This document shows, in pieces, positions 22,649-31,230 of a stretch of 64,000 nt of DNA. Every line of letters starts with the position of its first letter. Position 1 is the first letter of the stretch. This DNA is from Alphaproteobacteria bacterium. GTDB lineage: Bacteria > Pseudomonadota > Alphaproteobacteria > UBA828. Below the pieces are notes generated by a model that saw only the letters and a list, made by a program, of their open reading frames with translations, did not search any database and was not told the DNA's origin. The stretch spans positions 32,001 to 96,000 of the forward strand of contig CAXXVO010000013.1 of assembly GCA_963422645.2 (NCBI GenBank), given 5' to 3'. The position numbers were made by a program, and so were the translations under genes.

Positions 22649-23773
22649 ATGGCCGCCATCCTCGAAATCCAGAATGTCACGAAGACCTTCCGCGGCGGCG
22701 TGCGCGCCGTGGACGACGTGACGCTCGCGGTCGAGGAAGGCGAGTTCCTGACCATTCTCGGGCCTTCCGGCTGCGGCAAGACCACCACGCTCCGCATGGT
22801 GGGGGGCTTCGAGTATCCCGATGCAGGGCGCATCGTGCTCGACGGGCGCGACGTGACCGACCTCCCGCCATACCGGCGGCCGGTCAACATGATGTTTCAG
22901 GACTTCGCGCTCTTTCCCCACCTCACGGTGGCGCAGAACATCGGCTATGGCCTCGCCATCGCCGGCATGAAAAAGCGCGAAGCGGCGCGCGAAGTGGAGG
23001 AGGCGCTCGGCACGATCGAGCTGCTCGACAAGGCCGATCGACGGCCAGCGGAGCTTTCCATCGGCCAGAAGCAGCGCGTGGCCCTCGCCCGCGCCCTGAT
23101 CCGGCGGCCGAAGATACTGTTGCTCGACGAGCCGCTGTCGGCGCTCGACGCCAAGCTCCGTGAATCGATGCAGGTGGAACTCAAGCGCCTGCACGACCAG
23201 ATCGGCCTCACCTTCATGATGGTCACCCACGATCAGACCGAGGCCCTGGTGATGTCCGACCGGATCGTGGTGATGGATACCGGGCGCATCGTGCAGGCGG
23301 GCACACCGACGGACCTCTACGACCGACCCGAGACACCCTACGTCGCGAACTTCCTCGGCACCTCCAACATGGTTGCCGGCACCGTGACCGGGACGGCGGA
23401 CGGCACCGCGCAAGTGAGTTGCGGCGCTGCGGATATCAGCGTCGCGCTCCAGGGCGCCGCGCCGGCGGTGGGTGCCCGGGTCACATTATCGATCCGGCCC
23501 GAGAAGGTGGTGCTCAGCGGCGGAGCCGAGCTGCCGGCCGGGTTCAACAGCCTCTCCGGCCAGCTTCGCGATGTCTTCTTCCACGGCGATTCCGTCAGGC
23601 TCGCCATCGATATCGGCGCCGAGCGGCTGCTCATCGTGCACCGCCAGCTCGAAACCGGGCTCCAACAGATGCCGCTGCCGCCGGTGGGCGGCACGCTCTC
23701 CCTCGGCTTCGATCCGGCGAGCGTGATCCTCTTCGCAGGCTCCGGCGACGCATCGGCGGACAGCGCCGAATGA
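22649..23773 (+). CDS. Polyamine-type ABC ATP-binding protein (PotA-like)
   Basis: GPSGCGKTT, LSIGQKQR, LLLDEP, C-terminal TOBE-like region. Confidence 0.9.
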   Translation: MAAILEIQNVTKTFRGGVRAVDDVTLAVEEGEFLTILGPSGCGKTTTLRMVGGFEYPDAGRIVLDGRDVTDLPPYRRPVNMMFQDFALFPHLTVAQNIGYGLAIAGMKKREAAREVEEALGTIELLDKADRRPAELSIGQKQRVALARALIRRPKILLLDEPLSALDAKLRESMQVELKRLHDQIGLTFMMVTHDQTEALVMSDRIVVMDTGRIVQAGTPTDLYDRPETPYVANFLGTSNMVAGTVTGTADGTAQVSCGAADISVALQGAAPAVGARVTLSIRPEKVVLSGGAELPAGFNSLSGQLRDVFFHGDSVRLAIDIGAERLLIVHRQLETGLQQMPLPPVGGTLSLGFDPASVILFAGSGDASADSAE

Positions 23774-24506
23774 GGTACGCCCGGCGTCGCCGGCTCGAAT
23801 TCGCCGCCCTCGTCTCGGCACCTGTGATCTGGTGGGTCGTGGTCCTGTTGGTGCCTTACATTATCATGCTGATGATCAGCTTCTACCGGACGCAGTTTCC
23901 CTTCCACGTCCCCGATTTACAGGTTGCCAACTATCTGAAAATATTCGCCGAATCGCAGTACGTCACGATCCTTCTGCGCAGCCTGAAGATCTCGATCTTC
24001 GTCTCCATCGTGACCTTCGCGCTGGCCTACCCGCTGACCTATTTCCTGGTCTTCAAGGTGCGCTCGCCACGCGTCAGGACGATCATCTACGTGGCCACTA
24101 TCGTCCCGCTCTGGGTCTCCTACCTGCTGCGCGTTTACACCTGGAAAATCGTGCTCGGCACCGAGGGGATCCTGAACACCTTCCTGATCTGGATCGGCGT
24201 GGTGAACGAGCCGATCGAGGTGCTCATCTACAACCAGTTCGCCATGGTGATCACGATGGCGTACATCTTCACGCCCTTCATGGTGATGCCGATCTACGCG
24301 ACGCTGGAGAAGATCCCGCGCAGCCTGATCGAGGGCTCCAAGGACCTGGGCGTCGGTAATATCGGCACCTTCCTGCGCATTACGCTGCCGCTCTCGGTGC
24401 CGGGCATTCTGGTGGGCTTCACCTTCACCTTCTGCTTCTCGTTCGGCGACTTCATCTCGCCGCGATTGGTGGGCGGGCCCTACTCCAACATGATCTCCAA
24501 CGTGAT
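23770..24506 (+). pseudogene. PotB-like ABC permease, 3'-truncated by the mobile element
   Basis: PLWVSYLLR, IEGSKDLG..ITLPLS, GDFISPRLVGG; homology stops at NMISNVI exactly at the TGT end (24507); last TM helix and potC/potD absent. Confidence 0.8.
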
Positions 24507-24651
24507 TGTAGACGGACGAAAGTCGTTGTGAATCGGGTCAAGGGGTGGAATCAGGCGGAATCGGGCGGAAGGTGGCGGAATCTCAAGGGGATGCGGGGCG
24601 GCACGGTGGCGGTGCGGCGGCTGGCGTGCGGACGGAAGTCTTTGCGAATCG
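24507..24651 (+). repeat. Left end: terminal repeat plus spaced internal copy (putative transposase sites)
   Basis: CGGACG(A/G)AAGTC(G/T)TTG(T/C)GAATCG at 24513-24535 and 24629-24651. Confidence 0.8.
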
Positions 24652-24926
24652 GGCCGTGCAGAGGCCGTGAATTGGCTGGAAACGGCAATTTTCGGGGCGT
24701 TTCAGGGGTCTTGCGACGGCGGCAAATCGGGTCGGTTTCGGGGTATCGGATTCGGCTGGAAAATCCGGTGCGTGGCGCCCGTCCCGCGAGGCTGGCGGCG
24801 GCCCGCGCCGGGGCGCTGAATCGGCTTGAGATGGCGTGCGGCGGCGCGTAGGGTGAGCGTGGCGTCGGAAGCAGCAGTCCTCTCATGCCTTCGGGCGAGC
24901 GCGGGGTTTGCGACCCGCCCGGCGCC

Positions 24927-25664
24927 TCACTTCCCATCCCTCCTGATCGGCCCGAAGCGTCGCCTTGTGACATCGAGGTCAGCGGCCTTCGACCTGTGCA
25001 GGCTCACGATGTAGGCCTCGTCGCCACCTGCGGCCGACTTGACGACGGCCTTCCACAGGCGCCCGTCCTCTTCGAGGAAGCCCTGCGCGAAACGGCCGTT
25101 GTCCTCCACGAACATCTCCCCTTGATCGAGGATGCGCTGGAGGCGGGCGTAGTCTGCGGGTTCGAGATCGGGGTGTCGCCTGGCCTGCTTTGCGGCGGTT
25201 TCTGCGGAGAGGCGGGCGGTTCGGGAGCGTGCGCCGATGGCGGCCATGACCGGGCCTCCGAGCACGGCCGCGGGCCAGTCGGCGTCGGACCGGCCTTCGA
25301 GGTGGCGGCGGAAGAGCGCGCCGTTCCAGGGTTGGCCTATGGCGGCGCGTGCGAGGTCGGGGGGCGCGTCGTCGATCTTCTCGATCAGGCGGTTTGCGCT
25401 GTCGCGGCCCGGCCGGGCGCGGCCGGCGTTGTGCTGGAAGCCGGGATCGATGCCGGCGGGGACCTGGTGGATGCGGCCGGTGCGGCGGTTCTTCCAGGGC
25501 CTGGTGCGCCCGGAGCCGGGCGGCGGACCCTCGGACACCTTGTATCCGTAGCGTTCGAGGTCGTCGTCTCCGAGCTGCTGGACGATGCAGCGGCACTTCC
25601 ATCCGTTGGGCGGGTAGTGGGTCTTCCAGAAGGGGTGATCGACGGGGAGCACGGTGCCGTGCCA
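24927..25664 (-). pseudogene. 5'-truncated phage MuF/SPP1 gp7-like minor head protein with C-terminal PBECR-like nuclease domain
   Basis: WHGTVLPVDHPFWKTHYPPNGWKCRC, VPAGIDPGF; C-terminal KQARRHPDL..DY..AVVK..E.YIVSLHR; N-terminus replaced at 25665 by the inner element end. Confidence 0.75.
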
Positions 25665-25765
25665 TGTGAGCGTGCGCCCAGCATTTGATGGTGCGGTTTT
25701 CGGATTATTTGATGTTCGTGATGCGGCGCTTGGTTGATCTGCGAGAGCGGTGAGTGGCCTGGCTT

Positions 25766-26635
25766 TCATCGAGACCGCAGGAGCATCTCGTTCCAGTCCT
25801 TGGCGTGTCGTGGGCGCAACCTTTTCACCCTTGGATCGTTGAGCACGAGATGCTCGGCGGCAGTGTCGCCGGCGCTGTCTGCGTCGTAGGCACAGACGAT
25901 GCGACGTGGCTTCCACTCCTTGATCCAGGGCGGGACCGAGCTGGCGATGCCGGCGGTTGAGGCGACGACGGCGCCGTTCTCGCGCGTCCCCTCGACGCGC
26001 AGGCTTCGTGCAGAGATGGCGTCGACGGCGCTCTCGGTGAGGATGACGAGGGCGGGCTGGTTTCGGTCGCAGTGGAGCCAGAAGCCGCCACGCGCCTTGC
26101 GCGATCCCGGGGCCATGCCCCTGAAGCGTTTTGTTCCGGGCTGCGGCGCGGTGCCGAGGATCTCGGCGCCGGTCGTGTGCCCGCTGGCGTTTCGGCAGAT
26201 GAAGACGGCGTTGATCCTGTCATCGGCGTAGAGGAGGCCTCGGCCGTGGCAGGCTTCGAGCACGTCGGTGCCGATAGCGCGTTGGCGGATGAGGGCGTCC
26301 CGGACCCTGGGCCAGGCGCGGGGACTGGGCCTTGGCAGCCGCAGGCGTCGCGGGGCGGCTGGGATGGTGGTGATCTCCCTCCGCCCCTCATGGCTTCCGA
26401 GGAAGCGGAGGGCTTCCGGGAAGCGGCATCCCGTCGCATGGATGACGAGGTCGATGGCGCCACCCCCTCCCGTGCCGCGCAGGTGATCGAAGAACTTCTC
26501 GCCGTTGATGCTGATGACCGAGCCCCCGCGCTTGAAGCGCGCCCGGTCGGTCGGGTCTCTGCGGTAGCCGAGGGCGGCGGCGACCCGGTCGAGGGGGATG
26601 TTGCGGCAGGTGGCCAGGGGATCGCCGCCGCTCAT
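25766..26635 (-). CDS. DUF3991/Toprim-domain primase-like protein
   Basis: KFFDH..GGGGAIDLV N-terminus; Toprim LTESAVDAIS and AYDADSAG; KDWNE. Confidence 0.8.
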   Translation of the reverse strand: MSGGDPLATCRNIPLDRVAAALGYRRDPTDRARFKRGGSVISINGEKFFDHLRGTGGGGAIDLVIHATGCRFPEALRFLGSHEGRREITTIPAAPRRLRLPRPSPRAWPRVRDALIRQRAIGTDVLEACHGRGLLYADDRINAVFICRNASGHTTGAEILGTAPQPGTKRFRGMAPGSRKARGGFWLHCDRNQPALVILTESAVDAISARSLRVEGTRENGAVVASTAGIASSVPPWIKEWKPRRIVCAYDADSAGDTAAEHLVLNDPRVKRLRPRHAKDWNEMLLRSR

Positions 26636-26676
26636 TGCCGGGTCCCGGCGAAGGTCTGCTTGGAAGGGAGGCTGAC

Positions 26677-26737
26677 GGCGTTCCCGTTCCTGTACCCTTC
26701 AACGCTTAAGAGTTCCGGGAACGGGAACGGGAACGCC
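26677..26737. repeat. 14-bp perfect inverted repeat with GGGAAC iterons (putative replication origin)
   Basis: GGCGTTCCCGTTCC (26677-26690) / GGAACGGGAACGCC (26724-26737); GGGAAC x3 at 26717-26734; lies between helicase and primase genes. Confidence 0.65.
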
Positions 26738-27736
26738 TCATCCCGCACTTCCGTTGATGGCGGCAGGGGATTGCGGCTCCCGGTGCGCCTCGGCGGCTGC
26801 GAGGCGATAGCCACCCCTGGGCGCCCGTTCGATGCGCCCCTCCCTGGTGAGGCTCTCGATGGCGGCAACGACGGTGGCGTTGCGGGCAGCGGCGCGTGAG
26901 CGGATCTGGGCTTTCGAGAGCGGCTTTTCGGCCTGCTCGATCGCCTTGAAGACGCGCTGCTCGACGGTGGCGGGCTCGTGCCTGTCTTCATCTGCCGCGT
27001 CCTGGTGCAGACGGAAGGCCGGCCCATGTCCGCCGTCGACGAGTTCCAGCTCGATGTCGTTGAGGCCCCGGGCGTCGCGCTGCTCGACCGTCATGACGAT
27101 CTTCTTGTCGCGCCGGCGCAGGTACAGATTTGAGTCACCCCAAGCGTGCAGCTCGCTGCTCCCGCGCAGGGCCTGCCCCGGCCGGGTGCCGCCGCTCTTG
27201 CGGGCGTGGTGGACGAGGAGGACGGCGGTTTCGAAGCGGCGCTGCAGTTCGCGCAGGAAGCCGAGGATGGGGGCGATCTCTGCGACGGCGTTCTCGTCGA
27301 CGCTGTGCAGGCGGACCAGGGGATCGAGGATCAGGAGGCGCGGTTCGATGCGCTCCACGGTCTGCTGCAGGCGTTGACGGTCGCCGGGCCGGTCGAGACG
27401 CAGGGTGGGCACGTCGATGACGGCGATGTCGAGTTCGTCGAAGGGGGTGGCGGCGGCGCGGGCGATCCCCTGCAGACGCTTGCGCACCCTGTGGCCGGCG
27501 TCCTCGGCGGCGAAGAGCAGCACGGTGCCGCTTGCGCTGGGGCGGTAGTGGCGCAGGCATGGGACGCCGGTGGCCACGGCGACGGCGAGATCGAGCGCGA
27601 GCAGGGATTTGCCGCACTTGGGCTCGCCGCCGACGATGCCCACGGCCTGCTCGGCCCACAGCGTGTCCACCATCCACTGTTGCGCCCGGGGGCGATCCTC
27701 GAGCTGCATCGGCGCCCGTGTCGGGAAGCCCTTCAC
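26738..27736 (-). CDS. AAA_25 / RepA-like RecA-fold helicase with C-terminal wHTH-like region
   Basis: GGEPKCGKS, FAAED, LLILDPL, LVHHARK, LRGSS; GTG at 27736 overlaps the ExeA stop (GTGA). Confidence 0.82.
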   Translation of the reverse strand: MKGFPTRAPMQLEDRPRAQQWMVDTLWAEQAVGIVGGEPKCGKSLLALDLAVAVATGVPCLRHYRPSASGTVLLFAAEDAGHRVRKRLQGIARAAATPFDELDIAVIDVPTLRLDRPGDRQRLQQTVERIEPRLLILDPLVRLHSVDENAVAEIAPILGFLRELQRRFETAVLLVHHARKSGGTRPGQALRGSSELHAWGDSNLYLRRRDKKIVMTVEQRDARGLNDIELELVDGGHGPAFRLHQDAADEDRHEPATVEQRVFKAIEQAEKPLSKAQIRSRAAARNATVVAAIESLTREGRIERAPRGGYRLAAAEAHREPQSPAAINGSAG

Positions 27737-28566
27737 CGCCGTGCCCTCTTCGGCTTGGCGGGCTCGCCCAGGATCTCCATGAAGAGCTTCTCGTCGAGAA
27801 CCTCGCGGTTCTTCTCGGCGCCGGCGGCGAGCAGCATGTCGCCCATGACGGTAAGCGCCCTGGGGTTGCCGCCGGCGTGGGTGACCAGGGTGTCCTTGAG
27901 CTCTGCGCTCATGAGGCCCGGATTGCCGGCCTGCTCGACCAGATGGTCGAGCAGGGCCGCGAGGTCGCCGGCGTCTGCCTGGGTCATGACCAGGCGCTGG
28001 CGCAGGCGCGAGGCGATGGGCTGCAAGTCGGGCTGGCGGAGCCTGTCGATCAGGCGGCTGTCGCCGGCGAAGACGACCGAGAGGATGGCGCGCGAGTCGA
28101 AGTCGGTGGACGCCAGCAGGCGGATCTCGGAGATCACCGAGGGCAGCAGCTCCTGGGCCTCGTCGATGAGCACCACGGGCCGCATGCGGGTGTCGTCGAC
28201 ATGGGTGAGCCATCGCTCGCGCAGGTTTTTGAAGCTGGCCCAGCGGTTGTTGTACATCAGGTCGACGCCGAACATCCCGCCGATCTCGCGGTAGAAGTCG
28301 GACAGCCTGGAAGAGGGGTGGGTGATGGCACAGACCCTGAGCCCGTCCGAGCGGCCGAGGCGGTCGGCGAGCACGCGCAACGCCACGCTCTTTCCGGTGC
28401 CGGGCTCGCCGGCGATCAACGCGAAGCCGCCCTGGCGCACAAGATGATGCTCGATTCTGAGGCAGAAGCTGTCGACGGCGGGGCTCACCATGAGGCTGTC
28501 GACCGGAAGGTCGGTGGCGAAGGGGTTCCATTTGAGCCCGTAGAAGGTGAGCAGCTCGCGGTTCAT
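27733..28566 (-). CDS. ExeA-family AAA+ ATPase (transposition helper)
   Basis: FYGLKWNPF, GEPGTGKS, VLIDEAQ, GGNPRAL; directly downstream of the transposase. Confidence 0.88.
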   Translation of the reverse strand: MNRELLTFYGLKWNPFATDLPVDSLMVSPAVDSFCLRIEHHLVRQGGFALIAGEPGTGKSVALRVLADRLGRSDGLRVCAITHPSSRLSDFYREIGGMFGVDLMYNNRWASFKNLRERWLTHVDDTRMRPVVLIDEAQELLPSVISEIRLLASTDFDSRAILSVVFAGDSRLIDRLRQPDLQPIASRLRQRLVMTQADAGDLAALLDHLVEQAGNPGLMSAELKDTLVTHAGGNPRALTVMGDMLLAAGAEKNREVLDEKLFMEILGEPAKPKRARR

Positions 28567-30039
28567 GACGGATCTCCCTGATCGTCGTCCTCGCCCGGAC
28601 CGGGCGTCTTGTTATGGGGTACCCAGGCCGGCGGCAGGCCTGTTGCGGCCTGGGCGTCGAGCACGCCCTTGAGCAGCGGCGGAAGTTCGCCGACGCCCGC
28701 GCTGGCGCCGCCATGGTCGCTGCCGGGTCTCGCAGGACGGCGGACGCCATCGGCGTTGCCGCGCTTGTCGAGGGGGTACAGCGTGCACAGCCGCTCGCCG
28801 CTTCGGCCTTCCACCAGATCGACGCCGCTGAGGTCCCAGCGCGCATAGCGGACCCAGAGCGTCCTCAGGTGGCGCCACGGCTGTGGCACCTGGTAGCGGA
28901 TGCCCCTCGACCGAGACGGTGCCGTCCGAGCGCCTGAGCGTGCGCTTCCTGGCGATGCGGAAGGCCGCCTTGAGCTCGTCCGAGGCGGGGCAGGGCCTCG
29001 ATGCCTTGACGCTCCCGGCGAGGCGTTCATGCGGCGTCATGCCGAGCTCGCGGTGCACCCGCCGATGGTAGTCCTGCTCCAGCCAGGCTATGGTGGCGTC
29101 GTTGAGCATCTTCAGGGTGAGCGCGTCGACGCCTTCGAGCTGAGCCATCAGGCGGCCCTCGACCGTGCCCCAGAACGACTCGATTTTTCCATTTTGATGG
29201 GGGCTGTAAGCGAGTGTCGTGGCCCCCACGATGCCGAGGCGGTGCAAGCCCTCCTCGACCTCGCCCGCCGTCATCGGCCCGCCGTTGTCGGTCAGCAGGG
29301 ACCTGGGCAAGTCCCTCTTCATGAAGGCCTGACAGAGCCCGTGGACGAAGACCTCGGCGGTCTCCTCCAGGTACCACTGCAGGTGGCAGCCAAGCCTGGA
29401 GTGGTCGTCGAGGAAGCCGAGCAGGATGGGCGTCTGCCATTCGCCCGACGCCGTCAGCACGCGGCGCTTGCCGTGGTGGAAGTCCCCGTGCCACAGCGCG
29501 TGACTGCGAGACACCTCGTAGCTAAGGACCTCGCGGGCTTCGACCGCCGGCTTGTCCTCACCCTCGTGCCACTTCCTGGGGCGCTCGCGCACCAGGCCGC
29601 GATTGCGCATCGCCCGCGTCAGCGTCGCGTAGGACGGCATCGGGCCGAGCTCGGGATGGGTCGCAACATGAGCCTTGAGGGTCTCGTAGTGGAGCTGCGC
29701 CGCCCACGAGGGATGGACCCGGTACTGCTCGCGCAGCGCCGCGATCAGCCCCGCCGACATGGACCGCTCGCGGCCGACGTCGGTCCGAGGCTTCCGGCGC
29801 AGCGCCTTGACCGGGTCCTGCTCCTCTGCCCGCGCCCGGTAGTACCAGCGCTCGATCGTCGAGGCCGCAAAGCGCACCGGCCCCTTGCCCGACGGGTGCT
29901 CCCAGTCGCGCTGCGACAGACGCTCGAACTCGGCCCCCAGCTGGCCTGCAGGCGGCGGTGAAGCCAGAAGCGGCCCCACCACCGCAAAGCGCAGCCGGGC
30001 CCACTTCTCGCGCCTGGCGCCTGCGTCGTCCTTGTCCAT
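28563..30039 (-). pseudogene. DDE (rve) transposase with Mu-transposase-like C-terminus; +1 frameshift at 28903-28906
   Basis: WHGDFHH, LDDHSR, LTDNGG, QNGKIESFW; frame switches DGTVSVEG to IRYQVP..VRYARWDLS at a G4 run; may be intact if this is a sequencing error. Confidence 0.85.
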
Positions 30040-30088
30040 TCCGGCATCCCTCCCTCGCCGCATCGGAGAGATGCCCATGTAGAACGCC

Positions 30089-30505
30089 CTATCCGGGCGT
30101 GACAGGAACACTTTCTGCGGGCGGCGCCGAGCCATCGCCGAGCCCGCAATAGCCCGTCCACGGCTTGAACCAGATCAGGCTCAGGAACAGACGCTCACCG
30201 AAGCGTCCGCCCCGCATCTGCCGCAGCACGAAGAGCAGCGGCACCTCCTCGGGTGGCATCACCAGTTCGCCACGCTTCGCTCCCCAGGGCTCCGTCGCCG
30301 GGAACGCCTCCAGCCACCACTTCCGCCAGCGGCGCAGTGTGGCGACCGAGACCCCCCACTTCCGCTTGATCGTCTGCAACCGCACCCCGCCTCTCAGAAC
30401 CAGTGCACTCAACAGAACGAACAGGGCGCCCAGATAAAAGCGGCGCCCGAAGAATCGTACCGATGGTGGGGTCGCTCGCAGGCGGCAATCCGCGCAGCAG
30501 AAGCT
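30089..30505 (-). pseudogene. 5'-truncated Cys-rich/HTH accessory gene upstream of the transposase
   Basis: Extending ORF 30089-30412 upstream gives SFCCADCRLRATPPSVRFFGRRFYLG...VATLRRWRKWW, then a stop at 30506-30508; no start codon for the N-terminal part. Confidence 0.6.
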
Positions 30506-30507
30506 TC

Positions 30508-30843
30508 ATGCTCCAGGCCCTGCTCCCGCCCGCGCTGGAGGCGCTCACCTGGCGATGCACCGTCGCGGCAGAGCCCTGCGGACGCTGCCCCCGATGCCGC
30601 CTCAACGCCTTCTTCGAGCGCTTCTGCCGGGGACGCCCGGCGGACCAGGTCGCCCGCATCGACGACGCCCTCGAACGACACCGCGGCGCAGGCCGATGGT
30701 ACGCCGACGCCGACCCCGGAAGATGGACCGATCACGACGGATACGACGCCGCAGAACGCGCCGTCGAAGACCCCGAATGGTGGAAGGCCGAACTCGAACG
30801 CCCGTGCCGCCCCGGCGCCCGCCCCGGTCCCGACCGCGCCTGA
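30508..30843 (+). CDS. Hypothetical 111-aa protein with CxxCxxC, possibly a gene remnant of the outer element
   Basis: MLQALLPP...CGRCPRC...WWKAELE; starts exactly at the junction with the inner element. Confidence 0.35.
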   Translation: MLQALLPPALEALTWRCTVAAEPCGRCPRCRLNAFFERFCRGRPADQVARIDDALERHRGAGRWYADADPGRWTDHDGYDAAERAVEDPEWWKAELERPCRPGARPGPDRA

Positions 30844-30963
30844 AACCCCCACGCACCGCCCGTGCACGGGCCCCGAAACCCCCGCGCAGCGCTCCTTCAT
30901 GGCCCATGCACAGGCCGGTTTTTCCAGCCCGGTTCAGCCCCGAAAACCAGCCGATTTTCCAGG

Positions 30964-31015
30964 CCATTCGCAAAGACTTCCGGCCGCGATTCGCAAAGAC
31001 TTTCGTCCGGCTACA
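30964..31015 (-). repeat. Right end: two tandem putative transposase sites plus terminal ACA
   Basis: TTCGCAAAGACTT at 30967 and 30990 (23-bp period), ending CTACA at 31015. Confidence 0.8.
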
Positions 31016-31230
31016 ATGGTGACCCTCTCGCCCCGAATGTGGATCTCGCCACTATCCATGCGGTAGGCGCCGGCGAGAATTTTGATAAGCGTGGATTTGC
31101 CGGCGCCGTTGTGGCCGACGACGCCGAGCACTTCGCCGCCCGCGACCGCGACGGAAACATCCTCGACCGCGTGGGTGCCGCCGAAGCTCTTGTAGATGTT
31201 GCGCATCTCGACCAGGGGCGGCGTGGTCAT
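31016..31230 (-). pseudogene. Sugar ABC ATP-binding protein, 5' fragment cut by the element
   Basis: [34 protein letters not shown] then enters the element end; paralog of 9276-10052. Confidence 0.85.

Follow-up and report, generated by a model that had tools for sequence, protein, structure and literature searches.

A multicopy Tn6049-type DDE transposon carrying a putative RepA-like helicase, a hexamer palindrome and a DnaG-type primase

Closest described elements

Transposons that pair an rve DDE transposase with an AAA-type helper ATPase include IS21 (IstA/IstB), Mu, Tn7 and Tn5053/Tn552, none of which, to our knowledge, encodes a helicase. The way in which a replisome is recruited during copy-out or replicative transposition is not well understood, and for Mu this recruitment depends on host restart proteins. 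Here we describe an element with the same pairing of transposase and ATPase, found as a damaged copy at positions 25667 to 30505 of a 64,000-nucleotide stretch of alphaproteobacterial DNA (the window, at its full length; GC content about 68%). In contrast to the families named above, its ATPase is of the ExeA/AAA_22 type and not an IstB, MuB or TnsC, it has no resolvase or TnsA-like gene, and its ATPase gene is followed by a gene for an AAA_25 ATPase, a hexamer palindrome and a gene for a predicted primase. The comparisons presented here show that the clade to which it belongs has added a RepA-like ATPase and an adjacent, coevolving inverted array of GGNAAC hexamers as core parts, and that some lineages, including that of the window, add a DnaG-fold primase after the array, a primase that recurs in transposons with a DDE transposase and an ATPase.

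The nearest described element is Tn6049, known from Cupriavidus metallidurans CH34 and from pHS87a of Pseudomonas aeruginosa, which has the same gene trio in the same order. It is 3.5 kb long and present in 12 copies in CH34, each with a gspA ATPase gene (PMC2864759); its inverted repeats are imperfect and of 12 bp, and its direct repeat is of 4 bp (PMC4739549). The gene order in pHS87a is a small "transposase" open reading frame (ORF), the transposase, an AAA ATPase and a 90-amino-acid (aa) ORF. For the transposase of the element studied here, identity to the "IS481 family transposase" found in pHS87a and on many Cupriavidus replicons was 47.8% over 95% of the length; the ATPase was 50% identical over its full length to that of pHS87a, and the first ORF was 41% identical to the small ORF of Tn6049. 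Both elements are multicopy, and both have short, imperfect, TG-starting inverted ends with short target duplications, of 4 to 6 bp here and of 4 bp in Tn6049 (PMC4739549). The end sequences differ (TGTGCATAAGCA in Tn6049, TGAGCGTGCGC here), and so do size and tail: the 90-aa ORF that follows the ATPase in Tn6049 has no similarity to the helicase, and Tn6049 lacks the AAA_25 gene, the hexamer palindrome and the primase that bring the present element to 5189-5192 bp. The core trio of what an initial annotation of the window had proposed as a transposon family was, in consequence, already known as Tn6049 (PMC2864759, PMC4739549), and only the form bearing the helicase and primase seems undescribed. 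In the open-access literature, we found no published bacterial DDE transposon with a RepA-type helicase, a hexamer palindrome or a DnaG-type primase.

The top NCBIfam match of the transposase was IS481 (NF033577; E 9e-34, 117.3 bits, below the curated cutoff of 224). IS481 elements are known as single-gene elements. They have the TG...CA end pattern and the short, variable target duplications seen here, from which the present element differs by an extra C-terminal transposase domain, a separate ATPase and three further genes.

The window copy and its intact relatives

The features of the copy in the window are as follows.

25667..30505, minus strand: defective copy of the 5.19-kb transposon, complete at its primase-side end; 10 copies cover the stretch at 99.8-100% identity
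25667..25677, no strand assigned: terminal inverted repeat of the primase-side end, TGAGCGTGCGC, whose partner at the missing end is TGAGCGCGCGC (copy comparison)
25685..25738, no strand assigned: three subterminal TTGAT-core repeats (CCATCAA on the gene strand) starting at 25685, 25709 and 25734, with spacings of 24 and 25 bp
25766..26635, minus strand: predicted DnaG-type primase, 289 aa, with a Cys-less zinc-ribbon-like N-domain, DUF3991 and Toprim (Pfam, structure model)
26662..26752, no strand assigned: imperfect hexamer-repeat palindrome, (GTTCCC)3 ... (GGAACG/GGGAAC), overlapping the helicase stop codon
26738..27736, minus strand: AAA_25 RecA-fold ATPase with a C-terminal winged helix, 332 aa, a RepA-like putative origin-binding helicase
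27733..28566, minus strand: ExeA/GspA-like AAA_22 ATPase, 277 aa, transposition helper (Pfam)
28563..30135, minus strand: rve DDE transposase, 523 aa if intact, broken here by one extra base at 28903
30089..30505, minus strand: remnant of the first gene, encoding a protein with a zinc ribbon and a helix-turn-helix (HTH), 205 aa if intact, its N-terminus gone

The five co-oriented minus-strand genes, with the domains that the initial annotation had assigned to them, were all found by Pfam: AAA_25 (26738-27736, E 2.5e-36), AAA_22 (27733-28566, E 6e-19), DUF3991 and Toprim_2 (25766-26635, E 1.7e-10 and 3.3e-9) and, under cutoff, rve/rve_3 (28612-30135, E 2.6e-6, 28.1 bits for a cutoff of 32.6) and HTH_23 (30089-30412, E 6.6e-4). 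The start/stop overlaps said to tie transposase, ATPase and helicase together were likewise present, the transposase stop and ATPase start sharing ATGA and the ATPase stop and helicase start sharing GTGA, with GTG as the helicase start codon. The extra base at 28903 was unique to the window copy (it was found in none of the 8 full copies) and produced a +1 frameshift that splits the transposase into the frames 28612-30135 and 28563-29030. The frame of the first gene had no start codon up to the break.

Both ends had been misplaced. The left terminus was given as TGTGAGCG at 25665; since the flanks of the 10 copies covering this stretch diverge from 25667 outward, the true terminus is TGAGCG at 25667. 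Position 30505, taken for the right end, is not an end: beyond it 9 of 9 other copies are identical, eight of them extending for 351 bp to ...GCGCGCGCTCA before diverging and the ninth meeting a contig end 182 bp past 30505. The window copy thus lacks the right end, that is, the last 351 bp, together with the N-terminus of the first gene. The three TTGAT cores at 24-25 bp spacing were confirmed, and they belong to a family-wide subterminal CCATCRA repeat that is kept at the primase-side end in 8 of 8 aligned relatives; these repeats are probably binding sites of the transposase.

A search of the source genome gave 84 matches. By BLAST, 43 pieces of the element were found there at 99.4-100% identity, except one 521-bp piece at 89%. 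The left end occurs in the genome 26 times and the right end 25 times without mismatch. The full copies (n=8) measured 5189-5192 bp, ran from TGAGCG to CGCTCA and had 11-bp ends with one mismatch. An intact one (L008, 1150-6338) encodes proteins of 205, 523, 277, 332 and 289 aa, and in intact copies the helicase and the primase both lie inside the ends, as had been proposed. Target duplications (ATGT, ACGG and GGGAA) flanked three of the eight full copies, and two interrupted copies were flanked by CAAGG and CCTGC. The search for the same gene order and ends in other genomes, which the initial annotation had suggested, was also productive: TGAGCG...CGCTCA ends were recovered, and in four other genomes duplications of 4-6 bp were present at all 21 copies examined. 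Moreover, in a contig of public run X3 the flanks of the L008 copy were joined, with 5193 bases skipped and 4 letters shared. This is an empty site, and the skip fits an element of 5189 bp plus the 4-bp ATGT duplication. The element in the window is a damaged copy of a Tn6049-type 5.19-kb DDE transposon that is present in about 26 copies and was recently active.

Two partial copies abut at G000:C3:162385-166182, the left end of one lying at about position 1834 of the other. This looks like a transposon inserted into its own copy, so that target immunity may be absent. In addition, a 1764-bp IS110-like element (motif GLDVHK; G000:C11:81206-82969, with identical insertions in C18 and C13) occupies the same position in the primase gene of three transposon copies, with a 4-bp overlap. 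It accounts for 49 BLAST rows genome-wide, among them tandem arrays in which 3-5 copies follow each other head to tail at distances of 4-5 bp, as at G000:C11:48117-56954. We considered these three nested insertions as proof of movement with a disrupted primase and rejected them, the inserted element being IS110-like and probably site-specific.

Helicase, palindrome and primase

The AAA_25 protein has at least 7806 database relatives at E<=1e-10 (8000 scored), and the top 120 are at least 68% identical to it. A scan of species-representative genomes yielded 136 stretches that encode it; 79 loci were retained, and 58 of these, with non-identical helicases, made up the set of distinct relatives. 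The ATPase lay directly upstream of the helicase in 54 of the 58, with a gap of at most 206 nt; among the exceptions, L052 and L067 have no ATPase, L069 starts inside the helicase and in L071 the ATPase match is 4.9 kb off. On account of this constant position, we regard the helicase as a core gene of the clade. Comparison of copies within genomes delimited four-gene elements of 4354-4427 bp and one five-gene element of about 5.16 kb, with TGAGCG-like...CGCTCA ends. Long contigs placed such loci in Alphaproteobacteria, a gammaproteobacterial lineage, Planctomycetota, a deltaproteobacterium, Terriglobia and others; in binned genomes, the phylum assigned to a contig of about 5 kb is unreliable. 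Among 40 relatives of the source organism, the helicase was found in 8 of 20 other species of the genus and in 0 of 20 outside it.

The helicase was also found next to a second transposase lineage. In nine loci, the transposase combines rve with a Mu-transposase C-terminal domain and is accompanied by an AAA_22 ATPase, both at 27-29% identity, and the helicase, 64-72% identical to that of the window, falls within the Tn6049-type helicases as a clade with support of 100/98. This nesting indicates that the helicase module has moved between transposon lineages. Elements of the second lineage (L035, 969-4792, and also L029, L031, L034, L036, L041, L044, L046 and L051) have a 210-aa ORF as well, at 27-29% identity, and GGTTCCC repeats after the helicase.

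In 21 sequences, Walker A (GGEPKCGKS), Walker B (LDPL) and the motifs HHxRK and RGSS were invariant, and in a profile search of all solved structures the sole match was the RSF1010 RepA helicase (1g8y, E 1.3e-10). The AAA_25 protein is accordingly described here as a putative DnaB/RepA-type hexameric helicase. In multicopy subfamilies, namely L060-L066 (OZ219747) and those in contigs C6 and C7 of G008, helicase frames contain in-frame stops, including a TAG in the 70% subfamily of the latter genome; decay of the copies or read-through may account for them.

Directly after the helicase, most distinct loci carry arrays of GTTNCC and/or GGNAAC. As single-stranded DNA, the palindrome of the window folds at -26.5 kcal/mol (z -4.3). 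When 30 loci were aligned, pairing between the arms was seen in 72.1% of cells, a level that none of 500 shuffles reached (67.5 +/- 0.9%) and that compares with 23-59% for slid partners, and the variable hexamer base covaries between the arms, one pair being CG in 9 cases, UA in 8 and AU in 6. RNAalifold recovered 3 pairs only, because the arms are misaligned, and the stated structure was counted instead. The base also goes with the protein. In all 36 rows with helicases at least 58% identical (the closer clade), the hexamer base corresponds to residue 286, which lies in the recognition helix of the winged helix: GGGAAC accompanies N or H (27 rows), GGTAAC accompanies P or T (5) and GGAAAC accompanies A (4). 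The three types are interspersed on the helicase tree, which implies several independent switches. We take this correspondence as a sign that the repeats are bound by the winged helix of the helicase itself, and it makes the palindrome a candidate docking or loading site of the helicase.

Between the palindrome and the end repeats, a GC-rich, hairpin-containing segment of about 150 nt is conserved in the tails of four-gene elements from four lineages (L014, 8030-8230; L033; L037; L045). L050 and L042 lack it (2 of 8), and covariation in it is weak. Rfam gave no family inside five elements, this segment included, the only hits being group II introns outside the elements.

The model of the primase was of good quality (predicted local distance difference test, pLDDT, 88.8), and all 40 Foldseek matches at E<=1e-3 were DnaG, T7 gp4, Twinkle or T4 primases. 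Among the acidic residues of Toprim, E201 and D251 never vary and D253 hardly does. By its modelled RNA-polymerase-core fold, the 289-aa protein is a DnaG-type primase. Its N-domain weakly matches the primase zinc domain in fold (rank 49, E 0.033), with the zinc cysteines absent, and there is no C-terminal helicase-binding domain, the protein ending just after Toprim at residue 289. A complex prediction for helicase and primase scored 0.00 and gives no verdict either way. The primase was present in 11 of the 58 distinct rows, in about six lineages scattered on the helicase tree, and in the sister species G008 its 12 genes adjoin the 12 closest helicase copies. The question raised at the outset, whether helicase and primase might be sporadic cargo, has therefore two answers: the helicase, placed after the ATPase in nearly all distinct loci, is not sporadic cargo, and the primase is sporadic in its occurrence.

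The primase was not confined to the Tn6049-type elements. In the sister species G005, a 4242-bp IS21-family element (L093, 3504-7745, in G005:C1, and L094, 3384-7625; ends TGTTGATGACGG...) encodes IstA, IstB and, as its third and last gene, a primase of 47% identity. This element has 11 matches in the genome and one copy with a 7-bp duplication. A metagenome scan gave 53 informative loci, with at least 1.5 kb upstream of the primase, and a further 27 too short to judge. IstA/IstB-like genes preceded the primase in 44 of the 53, a Tn6049-type ATPase and helicase in 2 and none of these in 7, suggesting a general, overlooked link between transposition by a DDE transposase with an ATPase and dedicated priming. 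Two metagenome contigs of about 5 kb (L132 and L121) hold an IS21-type form with five genes, for a protein of no recognized kind, a ParB/KorB-like protein, IstA, IstB and the primase, and this form is apparently common. On plasmids, the primase is most closely related to primase domains that form part of MobV relaxase fusions, or to DUF3991-TOPRIM proteins.

RSF1010 (IncQ) likewise unites a helicase of plasmid type with a primase of its own and with palindromic DNA, in its case the ssi hairpins. The RepA/RepB'/RepC set of RSF1010 frees initiation from host factors, and RepB' is a primase with a fold other than DnaG/Toprim. Unlike that plasmid, the present element has no RepC initiator among its five genes, DNA recognition being apparently built into the helicase as a winged helix; its primase has the DnaG/Toprim fold; and the module is inside a DDE transposon instead of on a plasmid.

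Possible role in replicative transposition

We believe, with a probability of about 0.5, that the element itself brings what is needed to load a helicase and lay primers for a replicative step of transposition. The winged helix would dock the helicase on the hexamer palindrome, the helicase would open the element DNA, and primers would be laid by the element's primase or, where this is absent, by host DnaG. In this way the long synthesis of a copy-out or replicative step could start free of the host helicase-loading and restart machinery, the synthesis itself being carried out by a host polymerase. Clean duplications and retained donor copies fit such a copy-and-insert route. A precedent may be IEE, a primase-helicase protein reported to act on copy-out-paste-in elements (bioRxiv 10.1101/2023.06.07.543989). 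As described there, IEE likewise joins primase and helicase functions and works with the transposase on circle-forming elements, but it is encoded outside the insertion sequences whose excision it promotes, whereas the genes studied here are inside the element, and its primase is of the PrimPol type fused to the helicase, whereas here a separate DnaG-fold primase is found. Casposons, pipolins and Polintons, the self-synthesizing transposons, similarly bring part of their own replication machinery; they encode a B-family DNA polymerase and employ Cas1, tyrosine or retroviral-type integrases, and the present element has no polymerase.

Several observations weigh against self-supplied helicase loading and priming. 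With neither helicase nor primase, Tn6049 reached 12 copies in CH34 (PMC2864759), so that the module is dispensable for the wider family. Most relatives lack the primase, and with this query none was matched in those with the top helicase counts (G009, at least 53; G020, 20). For the helicase, the structure model is of low confidence (pLDDT 58.8) and its fold matches DnaB, RadA, Rad51, KaiC and RepA about equally; this unspecific match identifies a RecA-type ATPase and does not prove unwinding. None of the five proteins has a DNA polymerase domain. The distant clade shows no single residue-to-base code, and the covariation of the arms fits a symmetric protein site, or an operator, as well as a hairpin. 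In the source genome, five of the eight full copies have no target duplication, for which recombination among near-identical copies may be the cause. Finally, the circular junctions that the initial annotation had proposed to look for did not appear: joints of right end to left end (RE-LE) numbered 0 in the assembly and none was seen in public contigs, which cannot show rare forms.

Some of these observations would be expected if the AAA_25 winged-helix protein were not a replicative helicase but a site-specific DNA-binding ATPase that controls transposition, acting in copy-number control, in assembly or disassembly of the transpososome or in protection against read-through, with the palindrome as its operator and the primase as an optional add-on. 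The fold fails to separate helicases from KaiC- and RecA-like ATPases, the winged helix in relatives matches GntR-type regulator models (PF00392), and helicase and primase occur independently of each other. We nevertheless hold this to be unlikely: the site comes after the last or second-last gene and not at the promoter end, the HHxRK and RGSS motifs are of helicase type and invariant, RepA was the sole structural match at the sequence level, and regulation alone hardly explains why two unrelated replication-type functions are found on transposons with a DDE transposase and an ATPase. Alternatively, the parts could form a small plasmid-type origin. A circle, excised or copied out, would then replicate autonomously by means of helicase, palindrome and primase before reinsertion, and an internal, sequence-specific docking site beside a RepA-like helicase is indeed more origin-like than a fork primed at the ends. 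Furthermore, the primase has its nearest plasmid relatives on small plasmids, one of 2.9 kb among them (38% identity), and a feature search puts the helicase among AAA_25 clusters common in phages. Such an episome is nonetheless quite improbable in our judgement, given that no RE-LE junction was found in the assembly or in public contigs, that the helicase is nearly without relatives on 72,556 plasmid records (two weak matches) and that the element has no partition or copy-control genes.

That helicase and primase are mere passengers, of benefit to the host or directed against phages and with no role in movement of the element, we consider very improbable. Cargo is frequent on transposons, the primase is patchy, and its residues 57-96 weakly match the DnaG-like part of a defence reverse-transcriptase model (PADLOC). 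Against this stand the conserved position and translational coupling of the genes in 54 of 58 loci across phyla, a cis site that coevolves with the protein, the transfer of the module between transposon lineages, and elements so compact (4.4-5.2 kb) that they hold no other cargo; moreover, PADLOC gave no defence-family match for the helicase.

More tentatively, and with somewhat less than an even chance, we propose that these elements represent a widespread, unrecognised class of bacterial DDE transposons with their own replisome-starting parts, namely an origin-binding RepA-type helicase with a matching GGNAAC palindrome and/or a DnaG-fold primase, the former in Tn6049-type elements and the second lineage and the latter in Tn6049-type and IS21-type elements. 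The DNA synthesis of transposition would then be independent of host helicase loading and priming, which might account for the occurrence of such elements in many phyla and for their multiplication to dozens of copies. The module may help to explain broad host range and copy-number bursts such as the helicase matches, at least 53, in one sister species. In any case, the element blurs the line between insertion sequence and plasmid replicon. With a putative sequence-specific helicase accompanied by a candidate loading site and, in some lineages, by a primase, it offers a compact five-gene system in which to study how a replisome is recruited.

Surroundings of the window copy

As the initial annotation had suspected, the transposon copy is nested in a second mobile element, in this case the end of a Mu-like prophage remnant, and it interrupts a MuF gene. 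The flanking features are the following.

24507..25666, minus strand: end of the host element, a Mu-like prophage remnant, with terminal repeats and the C-terminal part of MuF (24927-25666)
30506..31016, no strand assigned: second Mu-like end piece, whose terminus is the inverted repeat of 24507-24535 and which abuts the truncation point

The outer inverted repeats at 24507 and 31016 were considered as the ends of the transposon and rejected: its copies stop at 25667, and the outer arm belongs to a separate, Mu-like repeat family, these positions being Mu-like inverted terminal repeats. The other half of the MuF gene was not found beyond 30505, where the ORFs have no Pfam match. The gene fragments of the outer flanks are unrelated, with a C-terminally cut ABC permease at 23419-24506 and, on the opposite strand, an N-terminal ABC ATPase fragment at 31017-31230. 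A target duplication is absent, which indicates that the region has been rearranged. Elsewhere in the genome, a copy of the 24507-25666 arm (91% identical) continues into full MuF, Portal_Mu and Terminase_6C, and the 30506-31016 piece has a 97% identical copy at C13:73817-74329.

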